56,306 nt of DNA from an uncultured Candidatus Saccharibacteria bacterium (GCA_964549935.1 CAZJVT010000005.1:1-56306), one strand, 5' to 3'. Numbered from the stretch's first letter, positions 4,340 to 56,306 are shown. Made by a program: numbers and translations. The notes: generated from the sequence alone by a model not told the origin.

Positions 4340-5995
4340 ATGATAAACCTAGTCCCGTGCCTTGACGCGAGTCCGAATTTCTTAGGTATTATCGATACTA
4401 CGATAGCACCTCCCTTTTTGTATTATGCATATCTACCTATTATTTTTATCTCTTTATTCATAGGAATTTTTATTTTCCTGAAAGATAGAAAGGCCCTGCT
4501 GAGCCGCCTAGCGTTGTTGATATCAATCACTTTTTCGGCATGGATCATCAATATTATTGGCCAATGGATTAACGTCTATGCGAATAATGTACATTTTTTT
4601 TGGCAACTAACCGCGCTTTTTGAAACAGCTGTATTCTGCCTGACTCTTTATTTTGTTTCCGTCTACTTAAACAATGAAGATGTCCAGCAGAAAACTAAGG
4701 TGGTTTCCGCTCTTATTTTTCTACCGATTCTCATAGCTCTCCCGACTCGCTTCAACATTCAATATTTTGACCTTGCGCAATGCCAAGGAGTGGTCGGCTA
4801 TCTCTGGAATTATATTTATGTCTTAGAAGCCCTTTCGGTTGTGCTCGTTGCTTTTATGGCATTTCGCAAAATAAAAGGCCAAGGTCTCAACGGCAAAAAG
4901 AAAAGTGAGGTTTTACTCATAACGTCTGGCGCCGGTCTATTCTTGCTGATTTTTTTCTTATCGAATGTAATCGGAGAAGCCACGTTAAATTATCAGTTCA
5001 ATCTTGTCGGCCCCCTAGGAATGGTTCTCTTTATGGGGCTCATCAGCTATAGCATTGTCAAATATAAAACTTTTAACCTGAAGGTTTTTTCAGCGCAAGC
5101 CTTGATTATCGCCCTCATTTTTATTCTAGGAAGTATGTTTTTCATCCGAACCGCCGAGAATATCCACATCGTATTGATTCCAAGCTTTTTACTTACGATC
5201 ATAGCTGGAATTTTTTTAACAAAAGCTGTGAAACGCGAAGTCGCGCAGCGCGAGAGACTTGAGAAGCTAACCCACGAGCTTGAATCGGCTAACGGGCAGC
5301 TCGAGCAGCTTAATGAGCAAAAGAGCCAGTTCCTCTCCTTCGCCAGCCACGACTTGAAGTCCCCTATTAACATCATCAAGCAGTTTGCGTCACTCATTGC
5401 GGACGGAACCTACAAAGAGCCGGCGAAGATCCAGGAGACAATCCAAAAAATTAAAACTAACGCCGACCGAGCTACGAGCCTCGTTGATGACTTCCTAGAC
5501 ATCCGTAAGATCGAGGAGGGCCACATGGACTACTCGTTCGAAGTTAAGGACATTGTTGCTTTTACTCGTAATGCCGTCGAAGAATACGCGCCTGTCGCTA
5601 AAGCGCAAAAGGACCTCGTCCTCACCTTTGAGACGAAAGTTCCGGTTACTAACGTCAAAATTGACCAGACCCGCTTCCGCCAAGTTATCCAAAACCTTCT
5701 TAGCAATTCGATCAAGTACACTGAAAAAGGTTGGATTAAGGTTTTGCTTACTGAAGAACAGAAAACCGTGCTCATTAAAGTCGAAGACTCCGGCATTGGC
5801 ATGGAAAAGGAACTTCTTCCCACCCTCTTCGAGCAATTCCACCGTGCGCCGGGTGTCGCTAAGAAGATCCAGGGTACCGGACTCGGTCTCTACATCAGCA
5901 AACAGATTGTTATTGCTCACGGAGGCGATGTTTGGGTAGAATCAGAGGGTAAAGACAAAGGCTCGACGTTCTACGTAAGAATACCGAAGGCGTAA
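4340..5995 (+). CDS. Sensor histidine kinase with multi-pass N-terminal membrane domain
   Basis: About 7 TM helices, a coiled-coil linker, the H-box FASHDLKSP, and N/G boxes (NSIKYT, DSGIGM, GTGLGL). Confidence 0.85.
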   Translation: MINLVPCLDASPNFLGIIDTTIAPPFLYYAYLPIIFISLFIGIFIFLKDRKALLSRLALLISITFSAWIINIIGQWINVYANNVHFFWQLTALFETAVFCLTLYFVSVYLNNEDVQQKTKVVSALIFLPILIALPTRFNIQYFDLAQCQGVVGYLWNYIYVLEALSVVLVAFMAFRKIKGQGLNGKKKSEVLLITSGAGLFLLIFFLSNVIGEATLNYQFNLVGPLGMVLFMGLISYSIVKYKTFNLKVFSAQALIIALIFILGSMFFIRTAENIHIVLIPSFLLTIIAGIFLTKAVKREVAQRERLEKLTHELESANGQLEQLNEQKSQFLSFASHDLKSPINIIKQFASLIADGTYKEPAKIQETIQKIKTNADRATSLVDDFLDIRKIEEGHMDYSFEVKDIVAFTRNAVEEYAPVAKAQKDLVLTFETKVPVTNVKIDQTRFRQVIQNLLSNSIKYTEKGWIKVLLTEEQKTVLIKVEDSGIGMEKELLPTLFEQFHRAPGVAKKIQGTGLGLYISKQIVIAHGGDVWVESEGKDKGSTFYVRIPKA

Positions 5996-6424: not shown

Positions 6425-6535
6425 TTATCCACACAGAATAAGCCAAAAAAGGTTTTGATGCTGTATTATTGAAGTAAGAACTCGAGGCGGTCGCCTTGTA
6501 TGATTCTAGCTTTCCATTAAAATTATCAATCATCT

Positions 6536-7108
6536 ATGAAAAAAGGTTTCACGCTCATCGAACTCCTCATCGTCATCGGTATTCTCGCCGTGTTGGCAAC
6601 AGTCACTGTTTTGGTATTAAACCCGGCGGAACTGTTCCGTCAGGCTCGTGACAGCCAAAGAATGTCCGATCTTGGCACGCTTAAGAACGCCATCGGTCTT
6701 TATCTCACAACAGAGGCTGTGCCGGTTATTGGCGGCGGGACACAAGCGCTTACCTGTGGCTCAAAATTTGGCGCGGATAAAGCCGGTGTTACAACGCCCT
6801 TCACCGGTCTTACTCAGACAACATTGAGCGCAACCCCCTTCGCTACTGATGGCAGCGGCTACATTCCGGTTGCCTTCTCTACAATGACCGGTGGTTCGCC
6901 GATCTCAACCCTTCCGCGAGATCCGACGACGACTGGAACTGCTCAGTTCTATGCATATGCCTGCGGAACAATCGGTACTGCGAATGAATTAACTTTCGAA
7001 ATAGATACGAACATGGAAAGCACTAAATACGTAGCCGCGGAAGGAACGGATGGAGGCAATAATGCCGGTATGTATGAAATTGGTACGGTTTCGGGACTTT
7101 CGTTCTAA
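6536..7108 (+). CDS. Type IV pilin (prepilin-type N-terminal methylation signal)
   Basis: MKKG|FTLIELLIVIGILAVLA leader plus hydrophobic helix. 190 aa. Confidence 0.85.
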   Translation: MKKGFTLIELLIVIGILAVLATVTVLVLNPAELFRQARDSQRMSDLGTLKNAIGLYLTTEAVPVIGGGTQALTCGSKFGADKAGVTTPFTGLTQTTLSATPFATDGSGYIPVAFSTMTGGSPISTLPRDPTTTGTAQFYAYACGTIGTANELTFEIDTNMESTKYVAAEGTDGGNNAGMYEIGTVSGLSF

Positions 7109-7155: not shown

Positions 7156-7299
7156 GATTGCACTTATCCACAATAAAAAAGAAAAAATACAGGAAAGGTA
7201 GTATGATTAATCACATAGCAAATCTCTGAACGCTGCCGCCAGTTGCTGGTAGCACATTTCGGGGATTGTATTATTTACTAAATATTAACGGTTATTATT

Positions 7300-7900: not shown

Positions 7901-8488
7901 ATGAACGCACTAGACATCGTAACTATACTCATACTTTGTCTGCTGGAAGGGGCGCACTACCTGTGCCGCCCCTTTTTAGTGCAGCACAAAACGTTACTTT
8001 TAATACTTATCTTTTCTTTTGTAGCTGCGAGCCTGGGACTTCATATATATACTGACTACCATACAATCGCTTTAAGTCCTCCGCCTCTCAACTATCTTTT
8101 GCCGCCGCATGCCCCGCTAAGCGCCTATGCACTGACGGTTTGGAACAGGCTTATCGCACCCTACACTCTTTCTCTCCTTCTTTCGCTAATAACCTATCTC
8201 CTGGCTACTAAAATGCGGTTCTTCAAAGACCGCCTGCACGAGAATGAGGCACTCTATATCGTGATAACGATTTTCCTCATGCGCCATCCTTATTGGATTG
8301 CCTATTGCGCAAGCCTCTTACTCCTAGCCATTATTGCCGCGGTGATTGGAACTATAAGATCTGGCAAAGACTACCGCTTCTCCCTCTATGTACTTTGGTT
8401 GCCGAGCGGCATCATAGCCGTGCTGGGCTTCCCCCTTTTAAGGCTTCTTCCGCTTTTCCAACTTATTGGTTTTTCAAACCTTTACTAG
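7901..8488 (+). CDS. Polytopic membrane protein of unknown function in the pilus locus
   Basis: 195 aa with 5-6 hydrophobic helices. It sits where a prepilin peptidase would be expected, but I could not find a GxGDxK-type motif. Confidence 0.4.
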   Translation: MNALDIVTILILCLLEGAHYLCRPFLVQHKTLLLILIFSFVAASLGLHIYTDYHTIALSPPPLNYLLPPHAPLSAYALTVWNRLIAPYTLSLLLSLITYLLATKMRFFKDRLHENEALYIVITIFLMRHPYWIAYCASLLLLAIIAAVIGTIRSGKDYRFSLYVLWLPSGIIAVLGFPLLRLLPLFQLIGFSNLY

Positions 8489-8575
8489 CGATGAGATAAG
8501 CAATTGGGTTCCTAAGAGTGTATACTTAGGATAGCCAAAAATTCTTCTTAACTCCCATCGTCTTATCCCATATTT

Positions 8576-10285
8576 ATGGTTGAAATCCCCTCAGAACGAC
8601 TGAAGAAAATCCTCGTTGACGACGCGATCGTCACCGAGGATCGTTTTGACGAGCTCGCTGCCGAAGCACGCCGTATCGGCCAGGGACCGGCTAGCATCCT
8701 CATCAGCAAGAACATCATGACTGATGAGTACTATATGAACTTGCTTTCTCGTTTTTTCAGCGTACCAATCGCAACGCTTGAAGCGGGAACAACCGACGAG
8801 GAGGCGCTTCGTCTACTAACCGAGGACTATGCCCGTGAGAAACGCGTTGCTATCTTCAAGAAAGAGGTTGATGGGACACTGGACGTCGCCATGGAAGACC
8901 CGAGCGACCTCACGACAATTGAATACCTGGAAACAAAGTTCCAGACGAAGGTAAAGCCTTACCTTGTTTCGATGGCTAACCTCGCTCGCATCTTCGCTTT
9001 CTACGGTAAAGAGCAGGTGGAGGGCTTTCGTAAAATCATCCAAGAAAACATCCAAGCCTCTCTACAGCTCTCCGGCAAAAAAGACTCGGAAGCCGCTGTT
9101 CAGGTTCCAATCATCGCGATCACCGACAACATCATCTCCTACGCAATCTCGCTACGCGCCTCCGATATTCACATCGAAGCGCTGGAGACTGAAATTCTCG
9201 TCCGATACCGCATCGACGGTATTTTACATGAAATCATCCGCATCCAGAAAGAAATCCATCCTGCTATCGTTGCTCGCTTCAAGATTCTCTCCGGTATGAA
9301 GCTCGACGAGCACACGAATCCGCAAGACGGCCGTTTTCACTATAAAATCAGCGGCGAAAGCGTCGATATCCGTGTTTCAATCTTGCCGACAATGTACGGT
9401 GAAAAGGTTGAATTACGTTTGCTTGTCGGTGCCGGCCAGATTCTTTCCTTCGAAGAGCTTGGCATGTCCCCTGAAATTATCAAAGAACTCACGGCGAATG
9501 TCACCAAAAGTTACGGCATGGTGCTCGTGACCGGTCCGACCGGCTCTGGTAAAAGCACAACGCTCTACTCAATCCTTCACCTCATCAACCGCCCGGAAGT
9601 CAATATCATCACGGTTGAAGACCCTATCGAATACGATATGAAATACGTCAACCAAACGCAGATCAACGAACAGGCTGGTACCAGCTTCGCCAGTGCTCTC
9701 CGAGCAATTTTGCGTCAGGACCCGAATGTCATCATGGTCGGTGAAATCCGTGACGTTGAAACCGCAGAAATCTCCGTCCACGCCGCTTTGACGGGCCACT
9801 TACTACTCTCCAGCTTGCACACCAATGACGCGCCAACCGCAATCCCCCGCATGATCGATATGCACGTAGCACCGTTCCTTCTCTCGGCGGTGCTTAACGC
9901 TATTCTCGCGCAACGTCTTGTGCGTAAGATTTGCTATGACTGCCTCTACTCCTATCCGACACCCCTTGAAATCAAGAAGATTATCGAGGAACAGTTCAAA
10001 GACCTTGGCATCGGCGATCAAACACAGGTGCCCAAAACGCTCTTTAAGGGAAAGGGGTGCTTAAGCTGCGGTCAAACCGGTTACCGTGGACGCTTCGGCA
10101 TTTATGAACTGCTTACAATGACCGAGTCTCTGCGCACCGCAATCGTTGACCCTTCCTTCAGTCTTGAGAAGTTACGCCAATTAGCCAGAACAAACGGGAT
10201 GAAAACGATGTTCGAAGATGGACTGGCGAAGGCTGGTCAAGGCAAGACATCCATCGAAGAAGTTTTGCGCGTTATCCGGGAATAA
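8576..10285 (+). CDS. pilB: Type IV pilus assembly ATPase PilB/GspE family
   Basis: Walker A GPTGSGKST, Asp/His boxes, and a C-terminal CxxC...CxxC (CYDC, CLSC) zinc motif. Confidence 0.9.
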   Translation: MVEIPSERLKKILVDDAIVTEDRFDELAAEARRIGQGPASILISKNIMTDEYYMNLLSRFFSVPIATLEAGTTDEEALRLLTEDYAREKRVAIFKKEVDGTLDVAMEDPSDLTTIEYLETKFQTKVKPYLVSMANLARIFAFYGKEQVEGFRKIIQENIQASLQLSGKKDSEAAVQVPIIAITDNIISYAISLRASDIHIEALETEILVRYRIDGILHEIIRIQKEIHPAIVARFKILSGMKLDEHTNPQDGRFHYKISGESVDIRVSILPTMYGEKVELRLLVGAGQILSFEELGMSPEIIKELTANVTKSYGMVLVTGPTGSGKSTTLYSILHLINRPEVNIITVEDPIEYDMKYVNQTQINEQAGTSFASALRAILRQDPNVIMVGEIRDVETAEISVHAALTGHLLLSSLHTNDAPTAIPRMIDMHVAPFLLSAVLNAILAQRLVRKICYDCLYSYPTPLEIKKIIEEQFKDLGIGDQTQVPKTLFKGKGCLSCGQTGYRGRFGIYELLTMTESLRTAIVDPSFSLEKLRQLARTNGMKTMFEDGLAKAGQGKTSIEEVLRVIRE

Positions 10286-15754: not shown

Positions 15755-16226
15755 TTTGGTTCCAGGCTTTTTTTGCGACGTCCATAAAAGCAGCTTCTTC
15801 TGCCTTACTCCAGGTCGTGAGCACAAACTCCCCCGCCTTTTTACGTATCACTTCTTTTGGATCTCGAATCCCAACTCGCAGTCGTGCAAACTCTTCGGTA
15901 TGCAGGTGTTCTATCAAACTAGCTATGCCGTTATGCCCGGCGCTACCGCCTCCATGAGAAATTTTATACTCGCCTATCGGCAAATCGCTTTCATCGTGAG
16001 CAACAATAATCTCATTGATTTGCAGATTGCCCTGCTTCATCCACGCAGCAACTGGTAATCCGGAAACATTCATATATCCGACTGGTTCATACACTTTAAG
16101 CGACTTCCCTTCTGCAGAGGCCAGCTTTGCAATCTCCTGTGCAACAAAAACACCAACGTTGTGATACGTGGACTCATACTCTTTGCCGATATTGCCGAGG
16201 CCAACTAATGCTTTGATCATATTCAA
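15735..16226 (-). CDS. pth: Peptidyl-tRNA hydrolase
   Basis: GLGNIGKEY..TYHNVG, HDESDLPIG and GHNG motifs. Confidence 0.85.
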   Translation of the reverse strand: MNMIKALVGLGNIGKEYESTYHNVGVFVAQEIAKLASAEGKSLKVYEPVGYMNVSGLPVAAWMKQGNLQINEIIVAHDESDLPIGEYKISHGGGSAGHNGIASLIEHLHTEEFARLRVGIRDPKEVIRKKAGEFVLTTWSKAEEAAFMDVAKKAWNQIKDLVL

Positions 16227-16314
16227 TACTCACAAGTATACTCCGAGACGCCTCTTTTTTACAAAAAACATTGCACACACTCCTTATAATGTAGTACAAT
16301 CTCCTGTATCACGC

Positions 16315-16884
16315 ATGCTTAGCACTATCAAACGCCTTTTGACGGAGACCTGGGATGTTCTCGAGGTCATCCTGATTGCCCTCGCAGTCGCCCTTTTTAT
16401 ACGCTACTTTATCGCCCAACCCTTCCTGGTCTCCGGCGCAAGCATGGAGCCTGATTTCCACAACGGCAACTTCCTGATCGTTGACGAGGTAACCTACCGC
16501 TTTGGTGCGCCGGACCGCGGCGATGTAATCGTTTTTAAATACCCCGGCAACACTAAGGAATATTTCATCAAGCGCATTATCGGTTTGCCCGGCGAAACAT
16601 TGACGGTTAACGGGAACGTCGTTACTATAGACACGAAAAACGGACCGCTCGTGCTCTCGGAGCCCTATATCGCCCCGGATGGACGCAATCTGGCCGGTAA
16701 AACGGTTACGCTCGATGACCATAGCTATTTCGTTATGGGAGACAACCGCGGAAACAGCTTTGACTCCCGCAGTTGGGGCCCGCTCGACAAGAAGTTCGTC
16801 ACCGGAGTTGTCCGAGTCCGCCTCTTCCCCTTCGACCAGATTGGCATCATTCATCAAACAGACTACGCATCATCAACTAAATAA
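16315..16884 (+). CDS. lepB: Signal peptidase I
   Basis: SGASMEP Ser box and GDNRGNSFDSRSWGP box. The ATG at 16315 is chosen because the longer ORF overlaps pth. Confidence 0.85.
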   Translation: MLSTIKRLLTETWDVLEVILIALAVALFIRYFIAQPFLVSGASMEPDFHNGNFLIVDEVTYRFGAPDRGDVIVFKYPGNTKEYFIKRIIGLPGETLTVNGNVVTIDTKNGPLVLSEPYIAPDGRNLAGKTVTLDDHSYFVMGDNRGNSFDSRSWGPLDKKFVTGVVRVRLFPFDQIGIIHQTDYASSTK

Positions 16885-23830: not shown

Positions 23831-23927
23831 GCAAGGGCAAAAAAGCACGCGCCGGACCGAAGGGTCTTCCCTTGGTCCGGCTGTGGCGCTCTACTTCTGA
23901 TTCGTTTCCGACCGACCGGGAGCGGTC

Positions 23928-24851
23928 CTACTTGTTGGTCGCCGCACCCACGTAGTCGGCGATGCGGTTGCGCAGGTAGTTGCTCTTGTTGGGATCGCGG
24001 AGCCATGCCTGCTCGAGCCTTGCATGCTTCGCAGCCACACGAACGGCCTTGAGGCGTTGATCCTCTGTCAGGCACAGGAAGTGCGGATCATGTGCCAGCC
24101 CCGTGAGCAATGCAACGGGGTCTCGGCAGCTGCGCGGTTCGAATGCCGGCACCGTCTCGACATGCCCGTTGCCGTTCACCGCGCTGGTGGAATCTGGCTC
24201 CGTTGTTTCGGGTTCGGGAGCAGCCTCTACCTCGACCGGAGTCTCAGCGAGAGGCGGTTCGGTAGGCGTCGGTTCTGCACTTGGCGCAGCCTCGACGATT
24301 GGATCTTGTACTGCAGGCGGAGCTACCACTTCTTCCGCCCGATCCGTAGTCGCCACCACATCGCTGGGTGGCGGCCCTTCTTCGCGCTGCCTTCTGACAT
24401 CGGCCGCACGTTGTACCTGCTCCTCTTCCTGGCGCCGCTCTTCACGGACCAGCTCGAGACAGTCCTTGATCATCTCTTCTGCGAGAGAGATCCCCTTCTC
24501 GCTCTTGATTCGAGCGAAGGCGACTTGGACGGCGAGATCCCCGTCTGGCATGCTCGGCTCGCCGTAGCGCCGGACGAGATTGAGAGCTTCGTCCAGAGAG
24601 ATCCCAACCACCACCGCCTGCTCTTCCGCGGCACGTCGCCGCGCAGCGGCTTGGGCGTTCATCCTGGCAAACTTCGCCAGGATGTTCTCCCAGCGCAAGT
24701 CCTCCCTCAACCCCCGTAGCCGAGCGTCGCTGGCCAGGAGGGCGACCCAGTTACAACTGCAGCCATCATCCGGATACAGCATTCGTCGTCTCCTTTCCGG
24801 CCACCACTTCGGCCTAGATTCAAGCCTATGCTTCAAAATAAACTCGGTCAA
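23928..24851 (-). CDS. G+C-rich hypothetical protein with a central Pro/Glu/Ala/Thr-rich linker
   Basis: 307-aa ORF with a TTG start as drawn. Codons are GC-rich at the third position, and a G+C-rich hairpin with a T-run lies downstream (23852-23880). Confidence 0.5.
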   Translation of the reverse strand: MTEFILKHRLESRPKWWPERRRRMLYPDDGCSCNWVALLASDARLRGLREDLRWENILAKFARMNAQAAARRRAAEEQAVVVGISLDEALNLVRRYGEPSMPDGDLAVQVAFARIKSEKGISLAEEMIKDCLELVREERRQEEEQVQRAADVRRQREEGPPPSDVVATTDRAEEVVAPPAVQDPIVEAAPSAEPTPTEPPLAETPVEVEAAPEPETTEPDSTSAVNGNGHVETVPAFEPRSCRDPVALLTGLAHDPHFLCLTEDQRLKAVRVAAKHARLEQAWLRDPNKSNYLRNRIADYVGAATNK

Positions 24852-25021
24852 CTTGTAGAAAAAATATAAAATTGTCTTATATAAAATGATTCACCGCTCC
24901 GAGCAACAAGCTGGAGCGGTGAAGCGAGGGAACTTATAATTTTTAGAGACGCTTCCCTCTACGCTGCGTCTTTCTTCTTCTACGGCCAGGTCATACCGGC
25001 CTCCTTTATGTAGCTACTGCG

Positions 25022-26056
25022 CTACTTCTTCGAGCCCTTGCGACTGCGGCGAGGAACACCCCCACCGATCATCTTCCCGAGCTGCGCCAGGCGCTGCCTG
25101 GCATCATGCCCGGCCGCAACCTCCTTCTTGAGCTCACGGACGATCTTCTCGTCGGCCTTTGCTCGCGCTCGAAGAGCGAGCAGGTCCGCCTCGCACTTGA
25201 CCAGAGCCGCCTTGAGAGCCGGCTCACGATGCTGCGCGAGGACGGCGGACTGCCACTCCTCGCTGCTGCGATCCTCCGCCGACTTCACCTTGGCCTCAGC
25301 CGTATCGCGGATCTTCTTGATCTCCGCGAGCGTCTGATCGAGCCTGGCCTTCATACCGGCAAGCTCCTCCCGAGCACGACCGAGTTCGCTGGAGAGCTTC
25401 TCCTGCTCGTCTCGCGAGCGGCCGACCGCCGCCCTTGCCTCCTCCAACTGCTGATGAAGCTCGTCAGCTCGTGCGGTTGCACTCGCCTCCTTACCTCGAA
25501 CGTCAGAGAGAGAAGCTGTCAGACCTCCGACCTCCTCCGTACGCCGCTGAAGCTCATTGCGCAAGCCACGAAGGTCTCCCTCCAGGCTCACGATGCGCTT
25601 CTTGGCGACATCGAGATCGGTGCGAATTCTGATCGTCTCCTCCGGGTTGAGCGCTGCGAGCTTCTTCTCCAGCTCCTCAGCCTTAGCCCAGGATTCGATG
25701 ACCATCTGATTGAGCTGGTCGCGCTCCTGCTCCTCCGTCCTGCAAGCTGGCGGCTTCAAGCCAACCAGTCGGTGAGCCGTTCGCCCCAGATCAGCTGGGT
25801 CCGTGGGTCCGTAGTAATGGACCCGTCGCTCCTGAGCCTTTCGGCGCAGAGCTGCGACCTGCCCATCGCTGAGCTCACTGCAGAGGAGCAGGTGCCCGGT
25901 GCTGCCGGGCAGGCCTGCACGAAGACGACTAGGGAGGTCATCGTCGAGAGGCCAGATGGTGATTCCCTTGCTATCGGGAAACCACCTCCGAATATCGCCA
26001 GGTGGTACCCCGACGACCAACATGGATCGAGGGCTACCGGGATTAACTGAAGACAT
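25022..26056 (-). CDS. G+C-rich coiled-coil protein with a roughly 100-aa N-terminal alpha/beta domain (DUF2325-like?)
   Basis: ATG preceded by GGAGGAAG. About 240 aa of E/K/R/L heptad-like sequence. GAG/AAG/CTC codon bias supports this strand. Confidence 0.6.
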   Translation of the reverse strand: MSSVNPGSPRSMLVVGVPPGDIRRWFPDSKGITIWPLDDDLPSRLRAGLPGSTGHLLLCSELSDGQVAALRRKAQERRVHYYGPTDPADLGRTAHRLVGLKPPACRTEEQERDQLNQMVIESWAKAEELEKKLAALNPEETIRIRTDLDVAKKRIVSLEGDLRGLRNELQRRTEEVGGLTASLSDVRGKEASATARADELHQQLEEARAAVGRSRDEQEKLSSELGRAREELAGMKARLDQTLAEIKKIRDTAEAKVKSAEDRSSEEWQSAVLAQHREPALKAALVKCEADLLALRARAKADEKIVRELKKEVAAGHDARQRLAQLGKMIGGGVPRRSRKGSKK

Positions 26057-26093
26057 AAAGGGCTTCCTCCGCTGTGAGAAATGTGACCATTCG

Positions 26094-26114
26094 AAAAACC
26101 GCCCACCAGGGCGG
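26094..26114 (-). terminator. Intrinsic terminator downstream of the tkt operon, lying in the leader of the 25022-26056 gene
   Basis: Minus-strand ccgccc-tggt-gggcgg followed by TTTTT. Confidence 0.6.
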
Positions 26115-38764: not shown

Positions 38765-39658
38765 ATGTCAGAACAATACAAAGAGACATTAGAGCAACGT
38801 TTGCCGGAGGCGCTGAAGAAAATAATGAGTGCGAAAGAAGCGGCGGAAAACGACCACTCCGTCCGGACACTGCAGCTCAAAAATGGCGAATACGAGTTAA
38901 CATACGTGCCCGCAATACATAGCAACGATCCTAAAGATTCCCTGATGCAAGAAATAGAAACTCGTTTCCAAGAAATGGGCCCGGCACTAGTCGTCATTGA
39001 GGGGTGGCCCGACCTCATTGACCCAAGGTCGGCGAAGGACGTTGAGATTGCTTATGGTGAACAAAATCTGACGCGTGATGAATATATCATCAAGCAAGAA
39101 GAGCGCGGCTTAGCAGTTCGTCTCGCTAGTGAACACGGCCTACCTATCGCCTCCCCTGAACCACTGGACAAAACTATCGCCCAACAATTAATGAGTGAAA
39201 ATATAAGCCCGGAAGATATCATCGGCTTTTATGTACTACGCGGCCTCAAACAAGAGATAAGAACTAAAAAGCAGCTACCCGCTCCCGCTCAAATACTTTG
39301 GAGTATCGAGGAAACCAAGAAACATCTTGGCTTAGAACACGTGCCCTACCAGCCGTCCATGCTGCAAAATCGCTTGTCAGAACTTACGGGTATCGAAAAA
39401 GAAAAACTTGATACTTTAGACAAGCTCAGCGAAGAAGAATTAACGCAGGTCTTCGACTTAACGGACCCTATCCCATGGGAAGGGAAACCGTCTAGGACAT
39501 TTAACAAGATCAGCGAACTCATCAACGTTATGCGCGATAGTTTTGCTGTGGCAAAAACTGCCGAGTATCTAACGAAATACAAAAAAGTTTTCGTGACATA
39601 CGGCGGCAGCCATCTGCTTATGCAAAAGCCGGCATTGGAGTATCTGCTCCAAAATTGA
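38765..39658 (+). CDS. Hypothetical protein
   Basis: 297-aa ORF with no recognised motif. Confidence 0.45.
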   Translation: MSEQYKETLEQRLPEALKKIMSAKEAAENDHSVRTLQLKNGEYELTYVPAIHSNDPKDSLMQEIETRFQEMGPALVVIEGWPDLIDPRSAKDVEIAYGEQNLTRDEYIIKQEERGLAVRLASEHGLPIASPEPLDKTIAQQLMSENISPEDIIGFYVLRGLKQEIRTKKQLPAPAQILWSIEETKKHLGLEHVPYQPSMLQNRLSELTGIEKEKLDTLDKLSEEELTQVFDLTDPIPWEGKPSRTFNKISELINVMRDSFAVAKTAEYLTKYKKVFVTYGGSHLLMQKPALEYLLQN

Positions 39659-39705
39659 AAATTGTAAATTGAAAATTGTAAATTAGAAATTGTAAATTAA
39701 ATTGC
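39651..39705. repeat. Heptamer tandem array ((A/T)AAATTG-like, about 7 units) between convergent genes
   Basis: aaaattg aaaattg taaattg aaaattg taaatta gaaattg taaatta aattgcc. Confidence 0.9.
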
Positions 39706-39709
39706 CGGT

Positions 39710-41152
39710 CTACTGCCCGGCAATTTTGTATACATCCCCCGCGCCCATCAAGACAATCACGTTGTTGTCCTTTTTGAATTGTTTTACGAATTGTTTGCCG
39801 CTTTGCATTGTCGGAAGATAGGTCACGGCCTTGTGAAACTTTTTTGTTTCACGGGCGAGGTCCTCGCCGTTAACCGGGCCACTTGTTTCACGCGCCGACG
39901 GGAAGATCTCCATAATCCCGACCTCATCCGCGGGCGTAAAACATTTGGCAAACTCGGAAAGCAGCGCCTGAGTGCGGCTGAACATATGCGGCTGGAATAC
40001 GCAGGCAAGCTTACGGTCCGGGTAGAGTGCTTTAATACCCTCGAGCGTTATCGTAATCGCTGTTGGGTGATGCGCGTAATCATCAATGATGGTGTAGGTT
40101 TTTGCGGTTTTGATAACCTCTAACCGACGGGCGGTACCCGGGAAACTGGCGAGCGCCGCAGCCGCCTCCTCTACTGACGCGCCGGCCATCGTTGCGGCAG
40201 CAATTGCCGCGCCGGAGTTAAGCACGTATTGTTTGCCGGGAAACGGAACGCCGGCCTCAATCTCTCTACCGTAAAACAAAACGTGAAACATTTGTGAAAC
40301 ATTTTTCTTTCCCGTGTGCTTCCCGGCGGGGGAGTACCCAATCCCCTTGTCTTCGAGTCGGCACATCTTATTTTCGGCATTAAAACCGTATGTCAGTGTC
40401 TTAACCCCTTTCTCTTTGGCGTAGGCGGCCAACAATTTTGTTTCACGATTATCCCCCTCAATAACCAGGAAGCCGGCCGGGTCAATGTTGTCTACTAACT
40501 TTTTAAAAGATTCGTAATACTGCTTAGGCGTCTTAAAGTAATCCGGGTGATCATAATCAATGCTCGTAATGATTGCCGCAAACGGCTTGTAGTTCAAAAA
40601 GGCATCCCGGTACTCATCTGCCTCGATGACTAAGAACGGCCCCTTGCCGGCGCGAGCGTTGCTCTCCCATTTATTAACTTTGGTGCCGACGATCACGTTT
40701 GGCTCGAAGCCGAGCTTTTCAAAAATCCAACCGAGCATCGCGGTGGTCGTCGACTTCCCATGGCTGCCGGCAACGGCGATGACTTGGTACTGCTTCGAGA
40801 GCTCGCCGAGCGCCTGCGGGTAGGTGATAATTTTTACTTTACGGCGCAGCGCCTCCTTGACCTCGACGTTTTCATTCAGCGCCTTTCCGTTAAAAAAGTA
40901 TGCAACAGAACTAATTACCAGCTGCGTATCGGCCGGAATATTTTTTGCGGCAAACGGCTGCGCAACCGGAATCTTTAAGCGCTTCAAAACTGCGTCCGTA
41001 AAAAATTCATCCGTGCCATCCGATCCGGTCACCTTGCACCCGCGCGAAAGCAAAATCTGCGCCAAGGCGGTCATGCCCACGCCCTTGATGCCGATGAGAT
41101 GCACTTTGAGCCCCTTTTCGAATTGGAGAGTGGAGATTGGAAATTTCGCCAT
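39710..41152 (-). CDS. murC: UDP-N-acetylmuramate--L-alanine ligase
   Basis: HLIGIKGVGMTALAQ N-terminal motif and GSHGKSTTT P-loop. The start is taken at MAKFPIS (41152). The longer ORF runs into the neighbouring G+C-rich cassette. Confidence 0.85.
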   Translation of the reverse strand: MAKFPISTLQFEKGLKVHLIGIKGVGMTALAQILLSRGCKVTGSDGTDEFFTDAVLKRLKIPVAQPFAAKNIPADTQLVISSVAYFFNGKALNENVEVKEALRRKVKIITYPQALGELSKQYQVIAVAGSHGKSTTTAMLGWIFEKLGFEPNVIVGTKVNKWESNARAGKGPFLVIEADEYRDAFLNYKPFAAIITSIDYDHPDYFKTPKQYYESFKKLVDNIDPAGFLVIEGDNRETKLLAAYAKEKGVKTLTYGFNAENKMCRLEDKGIGYSPAGKHTGKKNVSQMFHVLFYGREIEAGVPFPGKQYVLNSGAAIAAATMAGASVEEAAAALASFPGTARRLEVIKTAKTYTIIDDYAHHPTAITITLEGIKALYPDRKLACVFQPHMFSRTQALLSEFAKCFTPADEVGIMEIFPSARETSGPVNGEDLARETKKFHKAVTYLPTMQSGKQFVKQFKKDNNVIVLMGAGDVYKIAGQ

Positions 41153-41210
41153 GTTCTTATACCCTACATCAAGTTCATTAAAATGCGAAGCGGGGTGGGC
41201 ACATGGTGCC

Positions 41211-41735
41211 CTACCCCGTTCGGCGGACGACGATTCGGAAGCGCCGATCGAATTCCTGGTGTTGGCGGCGGCGCCACCAGTCAGGATACTTGCGTCGGGC
41301 TCGATCGCGGTCTTCAACAGCCTGCATGACCGCAGAGAGGGCCTTGCGCCTCAGAGTCACCGGATTGTAGAATCGCAGCCGGTGAACGATTGCGAATCCA
41401 TACCCGTACTCCCGTGCAAGACGCGCCTGCTTGTGCTTGTGAGGCTCCTTCTTCCCCTTTTCATGGACGATCTTCCGGCCGAACTTACGCACATCGATGA
41501 GGATGTCGAGCTCGGGCAGGTAGATATCGATCATAGTGCCGCACCAGACAGAGTTACCCTGCTTGTCGCGACGCTCCTCCCGTAGGAAAATCGTCGCGCT
41601 CTCAACTTCGAGATTCAGCTCCTGAGTTAGGACGATGAGGATGTCGATCTCCTCTTTGAGCAACTCACGGCGGGCAGCCGGGAACCCAACACCGCGCGAA
41701 CCGATGATGGGCTCAATCTGCACTTCATACTTCAT
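41211..41735 (-). CDS. G+C-rich cassette protein, possible DUF559/Vsr-like (PD-(D/E)xK fold) endonuclease
   Basis: ATG preceded by AAAGGAGG. IDIYLPELDILIDVRKFGRKIVH ... LAREYGYGFAIVHRLRF resembles the DUF559 core. Assigned from memory only. Confidence 0.45.
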   Translation of the reverse strand: MKYEVQIEPIIGSRGVGFPAARRELLKEEIDILIVLTQELNLEVESATIFLREERRDKQGNSVWCGTMIDIYLPELDILIDVRKFGRKIVHEKGKKEPHKHKQARLAREYGYGFAIVHRLRFYNPVTLRRKALSAVMQAVEDRDRARRKYPDWWRRRQHQEFDRRFRIVVRRTG

Positions 41736-44650: not shown

Positions 44651-44685
44651 TTAGAAATTAGTAATTGGAAATTAGAAATTTCAAA
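44651..44685. repeat. Heptamer tandem repeat (TTAGAAA-like x5)
   Basis: ttagaaa ttagtaa ttggaaa ttagaaa tttcaaa, immediately before the ATG at 44689. Confidence 0.85.
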
Positions 44686-44688
44686 AAC

Positions 44689-45444
44689 ATGTACCAGGAA
44701 GTTTTTGAGGGTCTCGGTCTCTCCCCTAACGAGGCGAAGATTTACGAAACGCTCGTCGTGCACGGCGAATTAGGTGTGAGTGAAATCGCCACACGCTCAC
44801 AAATCCACCGCCGCAACGCCTACGACGCAATTCGCCGCCTCATCGACAAAGGATTGTGTTTTGAAATTATTTCGAAAAAAGAAAATTTATATAACGCAGT
44901 TGATCCGGGGAAGCTCTTAGAACTCACTGAAGAAAAACGCCAGTCAATTGAAAATATTTTGCCGGATTTAAATAAAAAGTTTCACCACCGAGCTTCAACC
45001 GAAGAGGCGTTTATCTACAAAGGCTACGAAGGCCAGAAAAATATCTGGCGAGAGATCCTACGCGTTGGCCAGGATATTTATATCATTGGTGCCAAAGCAC
45101 AGTGGTTTGATGCAAAACTTGATGCTGCTCGCGATGCTTTTTATCGCGAAACCAAACGCAAAAAAATGACCTTTCGCTTGCTCCTCGACCAAGAGGTGCG
45201 AGAACGGCTTCCTAATTTTACGGAGACTTATCCCGGACTGATGGAGCACCGCTGGCTGCCGAAACAGTCTTCAACAAGCGCGATCGTCGTGACCTTTGGC
45301 GACTACGTCGTGATGTATGCTGGTGTCGGAATTATGAAAATGGACGATAACACCGTATTCTTTGTCATCAAAAGTGCTGCTCTCGCCGAAGGCTATCGTG
45401 CCTGGTTTAAAAATATGTGGGAACAGAGTAAGGAAAATAAATAA
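44689..45444 (+). CDS. TrmB-family transcriptional regulator, copy 1
   Basis: N-terminal winged HTH: GLSPNEAKIYETLVVHGELGVSEIATRSQIHRRNAYDAIRRLIDKGL. ATG at 44689 is preferred over the TTG at 44665. Confidence 0.7.
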   Translation: MYQEVFEGLGLSPNEAKIYETLVVHGELGVSEIATRSQIHRRNAYDAIRRLIDKGLCFEIISKKENLYNAVDPGKLLELTEEKRQSIENILPDLNKKFHHRASTEEAFIYKGYEGQKNIWREILRVGQDIYIIGAKAQWFDAKLDAARDAFYRETKRKKMTFRLLLDQEVRERLPNFTETYPGLMEHRWLPKQSSTSAIVVTFGDYVVMYAGVGIMKMDDNTVFFVIKSAALAEGYRAWFKNMWEQSKENK

Positions 45445-47312: not shown

Positions 47313-47397
47313 ATTAGTTTCAAAATAAATATATACAAACTTGCTTTTTTTGCCTTAAATGCTTTATAATAATGACATATATTTTTTTGACACTATT

Positions 47398-48144
47398 ATG
47401 GACATTCAGAATGAGCTCAAAAAACTAGGCCTAAAGAAATCGGAGAGCAAACTTTATCTGTATTTGCTCGAGAAAGGAGCCTCTACCCCGCCGAACATAG
47501 CCAAAGGCACTGGTATCGCCCGAACAAACTGCTACAACCTCTTAAGGGGGCTTGAAAATAAGGGCATGGTCCAAGTCCAGGGTGCGCAAAAGAGCAAAGC
47601 CTACGTCGCCCGTGATCCGGCCACGCTCCTGACCGGCTTAGAGCAAAGAATGGAAGCGGCCAAACGCATCGTGCCAGAACTTCGCGATTTTTATACCACG
47701 CAGAAGAATAAGCCAAAAATCAGATTCTTTAGCGGCTGGGATGAGGTAAAAGAGTTATACCTCTTAACACTCGAAACTGAAAAACTTTTTGCCGTCGGCT
47801 CGACCGAGACAATCGCAAAAATTGATAAGAAATTCCTTGAGTCATATTGGCATGAGCTTGCGAGCCGGAAAATCATCTTTGACAGCGTGCTGATGGCCAG
47901 CGCTAAATCGAAAACGGCTCTCGAAATAAAAGCCGTTGCGGGAGCTTTGCGCACCGACAGGTTTCTACCAGAAAGGTTCGGTGACGAGCCGATGGACATG
48001 TTCATCTGGAACGACAACATCGCTCTAATCGCCCTCTCTGATCCTGTTTTCGGAACGCTCATTACCGATGCTGCTCTGGTTCGCGTACTGAAAATCATGT
48101 TCGGTGCGCTCTGGGAAGAGCTCGGAAGACGAAATGATAATTAG
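47398..48144 (+). CDS. TrmB-family transcriptional regulator, copy 2
   Basis: GLKKSESKLYLYLLEKGASTPPNIAKGTGIARTNCYNLLRGLENKGMV. ATG at 47398, with TTGCTT-18-TATAAT upstream (47341-47370). Confidence 0.7.
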   Translation: MDIQNELKKLGLKKSESKLYLYLLEKGASTPPNIAKGTGIARTNCYNLLRGLENKGMVQVQGAQKSKAYVARDPATLLTGLEQRMEAAKRIVPELRDFYTTQKNKPKIRFFSGWDEVKELYLLTLETEKLFAVGSTETIAKIDKKFLESYWHELASRKIIFDSVLMASAKSKTALEIKAVAGALRTDRFLPERFGDEPMDMFIWNDNIALIALSDPVFGTLITDAALVRVLKIMFGALWEELGRRNDN

Positions 48145-52361: not shown

Positions 52362-53567
52362 TTACCCTTGCGCTTCTTCTGTTTTTTCTTCCGCAACTGC
52401 TTCTTTGGCCGGGGTTGTTTTCCCGTGGACATCAATCTTCCAACCGGAAAGCTTTACGGCGAGACGAACGTTTTGACCGGCACGGCCGATAGCGAGTGAG
52501 AGCTGGTCATCCGGCACCGTGACTTTCGCCTGGTGGTCCGGAAGAATCTCAACCTCTTCAACTTCAGCCGGTGAGAGTGAGCTGGCGATAAAGCGCGCCG
52601 GGTCTTCACTCCACTCGATGATGTCAATCTTCTCCTGACCAAGCTCGTTGCTGACAGCCATCACGCGGGTACCGCGCTGACCGACACACGCACCAACCGG
52701 ATCAATCCCCTCCGCGCTCGAAGCAACGGCGATTTTGGTACGGCTGCCCGGCTCGCGAGCGATTGATTTGATTTCAACCGAACCGTCCGCAATTTCCGGA
52801 ATTTCTAATTTAAACAACTCCGTTACAAACTTCGGGTGACTGCGTGAGAGCAAAATGCCCGGCATGCGCGCGTCGTCTGAAACGCTGACGATATAAAACT
52901 TAAGACGCTCACCGATTCGGTAACGCTCGGTCGGGATAACTTCGTTAAAGAGCATGATACCAACGGCGCGGCCGATGTCGACGTAGACATTCCCCCGCTC
53001 CATACGCTGGATAGTGCCGCTGACGATCTCGCCCTCGCGACCCTTGAACTCCTTGATGATTGACTCGCGCTCGGCTTCACGCAGACGCTGCAAGACAACC
53101 TGCTTGGCAGCCTGCGCGGCGATGCGGCCGAACTCCTCGTGCGTCTCAAGCGGGAACAAAACTTCATCGCCGACAACAGATCCTTTCTTCTCTTTCTTAG
53201 CCTCATCAACAGTGATGTGACGGTCAGCATTAAAGCGCGGTAACACCTCTACCGGTGTACCGTCGGCATTAAACTCCGGCTTGTCCGCCATAGCTTCAGC
53301 GACGGCGGAAGCCTCCTCCCCTTCCTCTCCCTCTTCTTTAAAACGGACGGTCGTCTCATCAACGACGGTCTTCACCTGCCAGAATTTTAATTCACCGGTC
53401 TTAACATCAAACTTCGCGCGAACTATTTCGCCTTTCTTTTCGTATTCCTTTTTATACGCTGCGGCAATCGCGGACTCGATAGCATCTAACACCTTCGCTG
53501 CGTCGATGCCCTTCTCCTCGGCGACTTGGTCTATCGCCTTTTTAATACTTTTTAAATCAAACAACAT
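52362..53567 (-). CDS. nusA: Transcription termination/antitermination factor NusA
   Basis: N-terminal domain, S1 domain (GEIVSGTIQR) and two KH domains (GACVGQRGTRV; AIGRAGQNVRLA). An acidic insertion lies in the N-terminal domain. Confidence 0.9.
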   Translation of the reverse strand: MLFDLKSIKKAIDQVAEEKGIDAAKVLDAIESAIAAAYKKEYEKKGEIVRAKFDVKTGELKFWQVKTVVDETTVRFKEEGEEGEEASAVAEAMADKPEFNADGTPVEVLPRFNADRHITVDEAKKEKKGSVVGDEVLFPLETHEEFGRIAAQAAKQVVLQRLREAERESIIKEFKGREGEIVSGTIQRMERGNVYVDIGRAVGIMLFNEVIPTERYRIGERLKFYIVSVSDDARMPGILLSRSHPKFVTELFKLEIPEIADGSVEIKSIAREPGSRTKIAVASSAEGIDPVGACVGQRGTRVMAVSNELGQEKIDIIEWSEDPARFIASSLSPAEVEEVEILPDHQAKVTVPDDQLSLAIGRAGQNVRLAVKLSGWKIDVHGKTTPAKEAVAEEKTEEAQG

Positions 53568-53771
53568 ACTCTCTATTTAATGTTTGTTATTAATTTTTTG
53601 ATACATACCCGCTCAAGCTGTTTCGATAAGCCCGCCAGATATGAGAATGGGGCGCTCATTCGAGCGACCCACTAATAAAAATAGTATATCCCGACCGGTC
53701 AAAAAGTCAATCCTCTGCCGTTACCCTATAAAAATGATTTTCAATGAATATGTCAATTATTCACCTACTAG

Positions 53772-54288
53772 GTGTTTTACGGCAGCCGTGAAACATCCCC
53801 TGCTCCTGCTGGCGGGCATACTTTGTTTCACACCTGTAAAACACCCTGTTTCTAGTGTGAAACAAAATTGTTTCACACTTTAGGCTCAATTTGCCAAAAT
53901 AGGTCAAAGAGTGTGAAACATTTTGGCAAACACTCTTCGCGGTTTGTTCGGGAAATAAAAAAAGTGTTTGCCGGCAAACACTTTACCCGGTGTAAAACAC
54001 CCCTAAAATTGTTTCACGGCAAACACTTTTGTTTCACGGATAGCGTGAAACATCTTATTAACAGCCAATCGGCGGGAGTGTTTGCCGGCAAACATCTTGT
54101 TTGGTAAAAAACCGCCTCCCGAACAAACCGAGAAGTGTGTTTCACGTGAAACATCTTCGCGGGTCAGAAAAAGCATAAAACAACCGTGAAACATGTTTCA
54201 CGGCAAACACTAGTATGGGTTTGTTCGGGGAACCGTGAAGAGTGTTTCACGTGAAACACTCTTCATGGTTAGAAAGCGTAAAACACCC
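53772..54288. repeat. Dense array of GTGAAACA/TGTTTCAC and related G(T/G)(A/C)AAACA(C/T) motifs with nested perfect palindromes
   Basis: Seven exact GTGAAACA (53788, 53867, 53913, 54045, 54146, 54186, 54251) and seven TGTTTCAC (53824, 53879, 54010, 54030, 54138, 54194, 54243). Perfect palindromes lie at 53963-53982, 54138-54153, 54184-54203 and 54237-54264. Confidence 0.9.
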
Positions 54289-54307
54289 AATCTGGTATAG
54301 TTCAGAT

Positions 54308-54694
54308 ATGGACAGTCGTAAAACAACCGGACAGGTAGGCGAGGCGATTGCCTGTGAATACCTCAAATCGAAAAAGTACCGGATCCTGGCGCAGAACTTT
54401 TTGGGCCCGACGGGGGAGCTCGATATCATCACGCGGGACCCGAAAGGGGTATTGGTATTTGTCGAAGTTAAAACACTCGCCGGAGAATCTAAAATATTTT
54501 CGCCGGAGCAGCATTTTAATGAAGAAAAGCGTTTTCGCGTGCGCCGCCTGGCGGAGCATTTTGCAAATGCGCATCCGGAGTACGTCGATAAAAAACTCGG
54601 CTACCGTATAGACCTCGTCGCAGTTTCGATAAAAGATCCGCTCGAAAAAGATTGGCAAAAGGGAAGTGAGGTTCGCCACTACGAAAACGTTTAG
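54308..54694 (+). CDS. yraN: YraN-family (UPF0102) endonuclease-like protein
   Basis: GQVGEAIACEYLKSKKYRILAQNF....GELDIITRD..VLVFVEVKT core. ATG at 54308 is chosen because the longer ORF runs through the repeat array. Confidence 0.7.
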   Translation: MDSRKTTGQVGEAIACEYLKSKKYRILAQNFLGPTGELDIITRDPKGVLVFVEVKTLAGESKIFSPEQHFNEEKRFRVRRLAEHFANAHPEYVDKKLGYRIDLVAVSIKDPLEKDWQKGSEVRHYENV

Positions 54695-55151: not shown

Positions 55152-55317
55152 TATGAAAAATATCTACACAATAATTAGTCTTCGCTGGTGGCTCGCCCAA
55201 ATAGTTCCAAGGGCGTGCTTTGTGTTGGCATAACGATTTTTTTATAAATCCGTTCGAACTCAAAACCCGCTCTTGGAGCGGTGTTTTCTATGCCGAATAG
55301 GCGGAAGGAGATTCTTT

Positions 55318-55515
55318 GTGGGTGGGTGGAACGGCAGTGGACCTGATCTCGATACCTTCCACGGAATGGAGGAGGTGAGGGCGTGTAAGCACGGCAAGGT
55401 CGCCGGACAGTGCCCGGGCGATGCCTTCGATGGCAACTGTCCGCCCCTCGGTCGCGACGAGAAGCCGTCGTGCCGCCCCGTGTTTATCCCGCAGGGCGGG
55501 TGGGAGCTCGACTGA
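55318..55515 (+). CDS. G+C-rich small Cys-containing protein (about 65 aa)
   Basis: GTG at 55318 lies 7 nt after GGAAGGAG. The frame is the one reported as ORF 55273-55515. 4 Cys. Confidence 0.35.
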   Translation: MGGWNGSGPDLDTFHGMEEVRACKHGKVAGQCPGDAFDGNCPPLGRDEKPSCRPVFIPQGGWELD

Positions 55516-55625
55516 TGGAGGAAACCCTCCACTACGTCCGACTTGTTGCAGCGCTCGTCGGACTCGCACTAATTGGACTCGTCGGCCTCCACGGCCTCAT
55601 CTCGAAGCTGCGTCGAGAAAGATGA
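55515..55625 (+). CDS. 36-aa single-helix membrane peptide, translationally coupled (TGATG overlap)
   Basis: MEETLHYVRLVAALVGLALIGLVGLHGLISKLRRER. The ATG shares its A with the preceding TGA. Confidence 0.3.
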   Translation: MEETLHYVRLVAALVGLALIGLVGLHGLISKLRRER

Positions 55626-55967
55626 CGAGAGCAACCCTTGGGCTCCGCTCGAACGGAGCCCATCGGAAGAACTAACACCTGACTATGAATACATTTTTTG
55701 GAAAAATATATTCGGCATTAGAAACATTTTTATTTTCGCGTCAGGCCGGCTGGTATGACACGGGCATACGTAATGATGGCGATTTTAGATTGCTTGAGCA
55801 CCGAGACAAAAATGGTTTCGTAACCAGCGAATTCTGGGAAGAAATACACTAGCGATGAAATCATCCTGGGCAGAAATACAATCCACTGAAAAATTCGGAA
55901 ACTTTTCGCTGGATTCTACTTCCTCCGTCCGCGATGCCCTGGGCACCGCGGACGGAGGGAACTGCGA

Positions 55968-56114
55968 CTAGCGCGGGCTGATGCCCGCAAACGGACTCGG
56001 CACGGGCCGCACGTTGCCATCGGCATCGCAGGCGGCCTTCACCGCCGCGAGCGTCTCGGACGAGAGCTTCTTGTCCGGGGTGTCGGACGCCGACGGCACC
56101 GTCTTGTCGATCAT
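55968..56114 (-). CDS. G+C-rich small protein (48 aa)
   Basis: ATG at 56114 preceded by AGGGAGG at 7-nt spacing. A 12-bp perfect hairpin lies downstream (55922-55958). Confidence 0.3.
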   Translation of the reverse strand: MIDKTVPSASDTPDKKLSSETLAAVKAACDADGNVRPVPSPFAGISPR

Positions 56115-56283
56115 GCTCGATCCTCCCTGTTTGGCCTTGTGGCCACCTCCGTCCTCTCCCAAGAGGCCGGCGTAAAAATATATTTTCTATTCTTACGTCG
56201 ACCCCTTATCAAAGACAAAGTCGCCTTACGAGGCGATGAAATAATACTACCGCAAATAAGAAATGGGTCAAGAAATGCCGTTG

Positions 56284-56306
56284 TGCGCGCTGAGGGGATT
56301 GAACCC
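56284..56306 (-). tRNA. 3' fragment of a tRNA running off the window end (identity undetermined)
   Basis: Reverse complement reads GGG-TTCAATC-CCCTC-AGCGCGC-A, i.e. T-loop, T-stem, acceptor 3' strand and discriminator. Confidence 0.5.

Follow-up and report, generated by a model that had tools for sequence, protein, structure and literature searches.

The window, by which we mean the whole stretch of 56,306 nucleotides analysed here, contains a long gap between two divergent genes. To the left of the gap lies nusA (52362-53567, minus strand), to the right yraN (54308-54694, plus strand), a UPF0102 member and predicted PD-(D/E)xK nuclease, which is followed by a gene for a TrpR-like HTH protein (PF01371; 54873-55151, plus strand). 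A sequence-only reading of this DNA had described the divergent flanks and the lack of a credible open reading frame in the gap, and both descriptions hold: the ORFs found there are at most 80 aa long, are built from repeats, match no family and are not conserved. A promoter-like TTGACT-16-TATACT (53710 to 53683, minus strand), in an AT-rich stretch outside the repeats, is a good match for nusA. At the opposite edge a TATAGT hexamer (54296-54310) precedes the yraN ATG by only 6 nt, which would suggest a leaderless or near-leaderless transcript beginning at the edge of the repeats.

Pfam matches, covering essentially all of the long ORFs, describe an ordinary housekeeping chromosome with genes for a type IV pilus, ftsA/ftsZ, aminoacyl-tRNA synthetases, the pentose-phosphate pathway, recG, clpP, tig, an H+-PPase and nusA. 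Judging by NusA-based retrieval among GTDB species representatives, the window belongs to the Patescibacteria/Paceibacterota, near Ca. Harrisonbacteria. Its Rfam matches are two tRNAs only. Some further features are recorded here for completeness. Two paralogous TrmB-family HTH regulators (44665-45444 and 47359-48144; 259 and 261 aa) lie within 3 kb of each other, and similar genes occur in L007, one of the related loci introduced below. A high-GC island (23900-26100; 0.59-0.61 versus about 0.50 elsewhere) holds two minus-strand ORFs (23928-24851 and 25022-26056) that have no Pfam match and are overlapped by long ORFs on the opposite strand; this may be foreign or fast-evolving DNA. The last part of the window (55200-56306) is GC-rich and ORF-poor and ends inside a tRNA-Val gene, with a 100% match to positions 4879-4902 of the related locus L006. 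That locus carries tRNA-Ile(tat) and tRNA-Val(tac) at 4669-4902, and the end of the contig is probably a break at a tRNA cluster.

The repeats of the gap form a single array (53773..54288) with 29 half-site-class motifs, some of which make up six full 16-bp palindromes (TGTTTnnC.GnnAAACA). The octamer GTGAAACA/TGTTTCAC occurs in 14 exact copies, seven per strand, between 53788 and 54258, as had been counted before. The related motifs are also present in the numbers first given (GGCAAACA seven times, GTAAAACACC four times and GGTTTGTTCGGG three times), and the perfect palindromes lie exactly where they had been placed: AGTGTTTGCCGGCAAACACT at 53963-53982, a 16-mer at 54138-54153, CCGTGAAACATGTTTCACGG at 54184-54203 and the 28-bp GAAGAGTGTTTCACGTGAAACACTCTTC at 54237-54264. 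Two of the six full 16-mers are copies of TGTTTCACGTGAAACA, at 54138..54153 and 54243..54258; the second forms the centre of the 28-bp palindrome, with the start of yraN about 50 bp downstream. Two are copies of TGTTTGCCGGCAAACA, with GCC as inner triplet (53965..53980 and 54079..54094). The last two (54010..54025, composed of TGTTTCAC/GGCAAACA, and a 16-mer at 54194) are hybrids that join a consensus half to a GCC-type half. Both the variant and the hybrid palindromes keep the outer TGTTT/AAACA.

The remaining motifs are arranged less regularly. An abutting trio, GTGAAACA-TGTTTCAC-GGCAAACA (54186..54209), consists of a tail-to-tail pair overlapping the hybrid 16-mer at 54194. A split site, TGTTTTAC-N7-GTGAAACA (that is, TGTTTYAC-N7-GTGAAACA), is found at 53773..53795 and again at 54030-54052, and lone or oddly spaced half-sites (TGTTTCAC-N4-GTAAAACA, GTGAAACA-N4-TGTTTCAC and GTGAAACA-N4-GGCAAACA) occupy 53824..53932. 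The inner triplets CAC, GCC and TAC are thus mixed inside one array, and direct and inverted orientations are equally frequent. The motif GGTTTGTTCGGG is part of modules of 40-56 bp that are duplicated, both directly and inverted, within the window array, and it is not conserved among the relatives. The hairpin or cruciform potential of the region is very strong (z = -13). Contigs of at most 3.6 kb that come from the same organism, by exact protein match, carry an identical array.

The octamer is over-represented 13-fold in the window, where 19 exact copies compare with an expectation of 1.48 +/- 1.13, and none of 100 dinucleotide-preserving shuffles of the window reaches 19. All copies are restricted to two clusters. 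Relaxed half-sites occur elsewhere in the window at about 0.6 per kb and are nearly absent outside these two places. The second cluster, which does not appear in the earlier reading, lies 14 kb from the gap and comprises 5 exact and 5 relaxed half-sites (39845..40446) inside a gene for a MurC-like ligase (39710-41317, minus strand). The orthologous gene of the related locus L008 holds 4 exact octamers (15871-16501), mostly at non-homologous codons, and the intragenic octamers are encoded within codon strings such as R-E-T (CGTGAAACA) and M-F-H (ATGTTTCAC). From these placements, the intragenic cluster looks like a satellite set of sites kept by selection on the DNA. Copies of parS inside coding genes are known elsewhere. 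One intragenic site lies within a short insertion (GKHTGKKNVSQMFHV) peculiar to the MurC-like protein of the window. Separately, a short AT-rich tandem repeat of about 4 units (aaattgtaaattg/a variants; 39655-39705) separates the end of the ORF at 38765-39658 from the 3' end of the Mur-ligase gene.

The identity of the motif is given by its palindromic form. The 16-mer TGTTTCACGTGAAACA agrees at 16 of 16 positions with the consensus chromosomal parS, the near-universal, centromere-like binding site of the chromosome-partitioning protein ParB/Spo0J. A review gives exactly this sequence for Hyphomonas and names it as the consensus of Caulobacter, Burkholderia chromosome I and others (PMC7022226, Table 1), and a full-text search of the literature with the same 16-mer matched solely ParB/parS papers. 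The gap therefore holds two perfect copies of the 16-bp inverted repeat by which parS is recognised (consensus tGTTNCACGTGAAACa), and since TGTTTCACGTGAAACA is consensus parS, the octamer is a parS half-site. In the related motifs the inner triplet of this half-site differs, being TAC in GTAAAACA and GCC in GGCAAACA. ParB is reported to bind half-parS sites containing GTTTCAC (PMC5961200, PMC10419367). The earlier suggestion of a platform for an unknown dimeric protein can be kept as far as the platform goes, given its palindromic sites; the word unknown has to be dropped, as the palindrome is the consensus parS of ParB.

We compared the window with 80 nusA-centred Patescibacteria loci from GTDB, taken as slices of about 20 kb, which together with the window make 81 sequences and 1.24 Mb. 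In this set we counted 34 copies of the generalised palindrome TGTTTnnCGnnAAACA, against about 0.07 expected, and all 34 sit in arrays beside yraN/nusA. Arrays were found in L006-L009, L012, L015, L018, L022, L024 and L078. The NusA proteins of the closest three are 89% (L006), 74% (L007) and 71% (L008) identical to that of the window, and the array is retained down to about 50-60% NusA identity. The inner triplets differ between lineages, with AAC typical of L009, AGC of L015 and ACC of L018, while L012 has four perfect copies of the GCC-type TGTTTGCCGGCAAACA. L008 has 19 octamers within about 750 bp, including 5 perfect and 4 near-perfect parS sites.

The arrays themselves are not alignable over most of their length. 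Window and L006 can be aligned well in the flanking genes, but in the array only over one 113-bp stretch (75% identity, at 53824..53932). Motif content is therefore conserved while the sequence turns over, which is how a binding-site array would behave under selection. In L006 about 1.9 kb of extra DNA (8157-9816), with doubtful arginine-rich ORFs, lies between the array and nusA; the window has no counterpart of this DNA, which may have been inserted beside the centromere array. The relatives also differ in how the octamers are used. In the window 4 of the 14 exact octamers lie inside perfect parS sites, and in L006, L007 and L024 none do, compared with 89% (median 100%) in 115 control loci, which were selected for perfect sites. 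This comparison shows an apparent shift in the clade, away from perfect palindromes and towards closely packed half-sites of the lone, hybrid and variant kinds.

The array is more closely tied to yraN than to nusA. The window, at least 11 related GTDB loci and at least 4 metagenome loci all have it directly upstream of yraN, and this linkage is independent of the position of nusA, which in L024 is 5 kb away and in L007 and L008 lies beyond yraN (trpR-like <- array -> yraN -> nusA). A TrpR-like gene next to the array is confined to the four closest genomes, namely the window, L006, L007 and L008.

To place these arrays among bacteria at large, we used a DNA-pattern scan of metagenomes for a perfect parS followed 30-60 bp on by a generalised site, which returned at least 120 loci. 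Among the 120 paired-parS loci listed, tblastn finds ParA in the flanks of 75 and ParB in those of 65, usually adjacent. The probes were Spo0J and Soj sequences, and these same matches validate them. The link between parS and parAB is thus seen to hold in bacteria generally. Dense arrays of perfect parS sites were observed beside parAB in L181 (17 sites), L203 (12) and L188 (9), and L105 has 15 perfect sites in 1 kb (1044-2027) upstream of dnaA-dnaN; such arrays may be commoner than the textbook picture of a few sites per chromosome.

In four low-GC metagenome loci (L190, L193, L194 and L196) a YraN homologue lies downstream of the array. No other metagenome locus listed has a YraN match by profile HMM, and the four share proteins, at 46-67% identity, with the GTDB Patescibacteria loci; for one parAB-bearing control locus, similarity to Patescibacteria was confined to single, highly conserved proteins. 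In L196 the order is array -> yraN -> yebC -> ruvC -> dnaA -> dnaN, with dnaA-dnaN 2.6 kb from the array, and in L105 it is cca <- 15 perfect parS -> a 173-aa ORF of no family -> dnaA -> dnaN, with the array 1.1 kb upstream (both by Pfam). The same type of array is therefore origin-proximal in other lineages, as is expected of a chromosomal centromere. The partition genes themselves did not appear around the Patescibacteria arrays that we examined. Neither parA nor parB was found in the 56-kb window by Pfam, in the 80 nusA-centred loci (about 1.2 Mb) by tblastn with the Spo0J/Soj probes, or near any yraN-linked metagenome array, including the four just named, by tblastn among the loci listed. 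An unvalidated regular expression, written to catch box II of ParB and the Walker A motif of ParA, gave no match. We also found no report of ParABS, ParB or parS in Patescibacteria, CPR, Parcubacteria or Saccharibacteria in the literature searched.

Taken from the sequence, the gap is quite probably the chromosomal centromere of this Patescibacteria bacterium, an array of parS sites and half-sites that a ParB encoded elsewhere in the genome would bind. The case for ParB as the binder is built on the complete agreement with a recognition sequence that is nearly universal, together with the parAB and dnaA associations seen elsewhere. By established ParABS biology, each monomer of a ParB dimer would contact one half-site of the 16-bp palindromes with its helix-turn-helix domain. 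On full palindromes ParB would bind CTP, close to a sliding clamp and spread onto the neighbouring DNA, building the partition complex that serves to segregate the chromosome and to load SMC. Extra ParB would be held, in an open, non-spreading form, by the lone, hybrid and variant half-sites, as it is by the half-parS sites of Pseudomonas aeruginosa, and the local ParB concentration would rise in this way. The intragenic MurC-like cluster, 14 kb away, could then act as a satellite of the same ParB system. Occupancy by ParB would probably also damp transcription of yraN and the TrpR-like gene; some repression is plausible because the last sites of the array lie only 20-65 bp upstream of the yraN start.

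The mixture of inner triplets bears on what kind of ParB this would be. Full tolerance of CAC, GCC and TAC is not expected of a canonical ParB, and the existence of sites that join a consensus half to a variant half speaks for a single protein, tolerant at positions 6-7 but reading TGTTT and C8, rather than two specific paralogues. In a more elaborate version, the centromere of this Paceibacterota clade would have been reshaped into one that is half-site-dominated and of mixed specificity, read by a relaxed-triplet ParB or through open or monomeric binding, and functionally coupled to the neighbouring, universally conserved YraN. We put this forward only tentatively, as a rather doubtful extension.

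The short distance between the array and yraN also suits a different account, in which the gap is an operator array of a local dimeric regulator other than ParB, such as the TrpR-like protein, controlling yraN, the TrpR-like gene and nusA, and in which the likeness to parS is coincidental or convergent. This is a divergent promoter region with its last sites close to the yraN start, the window, L006, L007 and L008 all have a TrpR-like HTH gene beside the array, and a layout dominated by half-sites is atypical of parS. However, a match of 16 out of 16 to a near-universal consensus is very unlikely to arise by chance, and the same palindrome is linked to parAB in most of the other loci listed. 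Arrays of 14 to 30 sites with an intragenic satellite exceed what a promoter operator needs. Since the TrpR-like gene is found only in the four closest genomes, its product is a weak candidate for the binder; the arrays of L009, L012, L015, L024 and L190-L196 have no such gene nearby. On balance we judge the operator account improbable.

A strict association with yraN, found in many genomes but confined to this group, would suit an array that serves to organise the nucleoid or to process DNA and not to partition chromosomes in the classical way. The binder might be a ParB paralogue, Noc-like and of relaxed or altered specificity, or the array might act without ParB through cruciforms processed by YraN. 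The perfect GCCGGC-centred variants kept in L012, the very strong hairpin potential and the lack of parAB by the yraN-linked arrays would all be in keeping with this. Against it, neither a paralogue nor another candidate binder was found, the hybrid sites favour one tolerant protein over two specific ones, and hairpin potential comes automatically with an array of palindromes. The yraN linkage, moreover, may reflect an ancestral gene order near dnaA. We accord this account a lower probability still, and a small one.

The sequence-only reading had favoured a replication origin or an iteron field. In an origin, the octamers would be diverged DnaA boxes and the AT-rich DNA at 53581-53760 the unwinding element. 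Several features do recall an origin: the genes diverge at the gap in the window and its relatives, an asymmetric 8-9-mer in mixed orientation and spacing resembles a field of DnaA boxes, and the array is close to dnaA in L196 and L105. GC skew in the window is negative for 54 kb and positive for the last 2 kb, and L007 has a weak flip. However, no change of sign across the array is seen in L006, L008 (strong skew, +0.13/+0.20) or L012, and the skew is flat in L009 and L024. Collinearity with L006 extends to the very end of the window, and L006 keeps its sign beyond that point, so the positive final 2 kb of the window are a local blip.

The DnaA boxes also speak against an origin. The gap has no site within 1 mismatch of the TTATCCACA-like box and 3 sites within 2 mismatches, which is about background, and across the window as a whole canonical boxes are no commoner than background. 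The match of 8 in 9 positions to the DnaA box that had been claimed for the octamer applies to 4 of the 14 copies (TGTTTCACA), which end in the A of a DnaA box, and fails for the other 10 (TGTTTCACG). The arrays of the relatives contain perfect 16-bp palindromes, which are the signature of dimer binding and not of DnaA boxes. L105 has the canonical boxes TTATCCACA and TTTTCCACA in its dnaA-dnaN spacer, apart from the parS array, so canonical DnaA boxes are used in at least one array-bearing relative. Elsewhere in the window, two perfect TTATCCACA boxes (6425-6433 and 7164-7172, both plus strand; about 0.4 expected per window) flank a pilin-like gene (6536-7108) and are intergenic within the type IV pilus cluster; the skew is unchanged there.

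Neither dnaA nor dnaN is present in the window or in L006-L009, by Pfam and by tblastn with the DnaA and DnaN of L196 and L105; for the clade of the window this means that dnaA was not found within 54 kb on one side and about 7-10 kb on the other. An origin in the gap is therefore very unlikely, given that a DnaA-box cluster, dnaA/dnaN and a change of skew in L006, L008 and L012 are all missing. The iteron field has to be given up as well, as TRF finds no tandem period, no rep gene is present and the context is a housekeeping chromosome; a plasmid-type field, with regular direct repeats of about 17-22 bp beside a rep gene, is contradicted by TRF, by the motif orientations and by the gene content. 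Something of the origin idea survives, since parS sites normally lie near the origin.

We consider it extremely unlikely that the gap is a transcribed repeat array or structured RNA (a CRISPR-like array, a TIGR-like guide array or an sRNA), even though its short repeats and palindromes are dense and fold strongly and TIGR arrays are known in CPR bacteria (PMC12045711), because TRF finds no tandem period, no Rfam family matches in the gap, no Nop-domain Tas or cas gene is nearby, motif orientation and spacing are irregular, and motif content is conserved where structure is not. The regular repeat-spacer units and adjacent Tas or cas gene that mark TIGR-Tas and CRISPR arrays (PMC12045711) are both absent.

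Reading the gap as a parS centromere places it in an already well-known kind of locus; its occurrence in a member of the CPR/Patescibacteria and its variant features are what is new. With the chromosomal systems of Bacillus subtilis, Caulobacter crescentus and Hyphomonas neptunium it shares the 16-bp consensus TGTTTCACGTGAAACA in multiple copies; an origin-proximal placement is seen in the related contigs L105 and L196. Unlike those systems, the array lies upstream of yraN and not by parAB (parA being found in 75 of the 120 controls listed), and it packs about 29 half-site-class motifs into about 500 bp, with most exact half-sites outside perfect palindromes.

ParB of P. aeruginosa binds the half-parS heptamers GTTCCAC and GTTTCAC without spreading (PMC5961200, PMC10419367, PMC7022226), and the isolated GTTTCAC half-sites described here are, by analogy, plausible ParB targets. 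There, however, hundreds of such sites are scattered across the genome, whereas here they are packed with full sites into one array and its satellite. The inner triplets recall Burkholderia, whose centromeres on chromosome I (tGTTNCACGTGAAACa) and chromosome II (gTTTATGCGCATAAAc) keep the outer GTTT...AAAC and differ at the inner positions (PMC7022226, Table 1), much as the lineages compared here have their own triplets (CAC, GCC, AAC, AGC and ACC). In Burkholderia each variant has its own cognate ParB and a separate replicon, whereas here variants and hybrids share one chromosomal array.

Close packing of many sites for a ParB-family protein is also known from plasmid centromeres, such as F sopC and P1 parS (box A ATTTCAC), the heptamers of P1 being arranged in several orientations. 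The present array differs from these in its housekeeping chromosome, in the absence of a regular 43-bp repeat and in having no adjoining partition genes. With the DnaA-box clusters of oriC it has in common a long gap between divergent genes and many short asymmetric motifs in both directions, but it lacks DnaA boxes and dnaA, the relatives L006, L008 and L012 have no switch of skew and its site is palindromic, of the dimer type.

Chromosome segregation in the CPR/Patescibacteria appears to be undescribed in the literature that we searched, and this locus provides a concrete candidate centromere for a group of very small and largely uncultivated bacteria. Clusters of GTGAAACA/TGTTTCAC are best read as parS ahead of any novel explanation. 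Because parS marks the origin-proximal domain, the array could be used as a landmark to orient fragmented metagenome-assembled genomes. Its position upstream of yraN, a widespread UPF0102 gene whose function is unassigned, and sometimes directly upstream of dnaA, goes beyond what routine annotation would report. If the coupling to YraN is real, the array-yraN(-dnaA) module would be the first functional clue to this family, with YraN acting on origin or centromere DNA. Finally, arrays so rich in half-sites bear on the role of ParB at half-parS sites and, if our reading is correct, the CPR bacteria would offer a natural test case for the use of half-sites by ParB.
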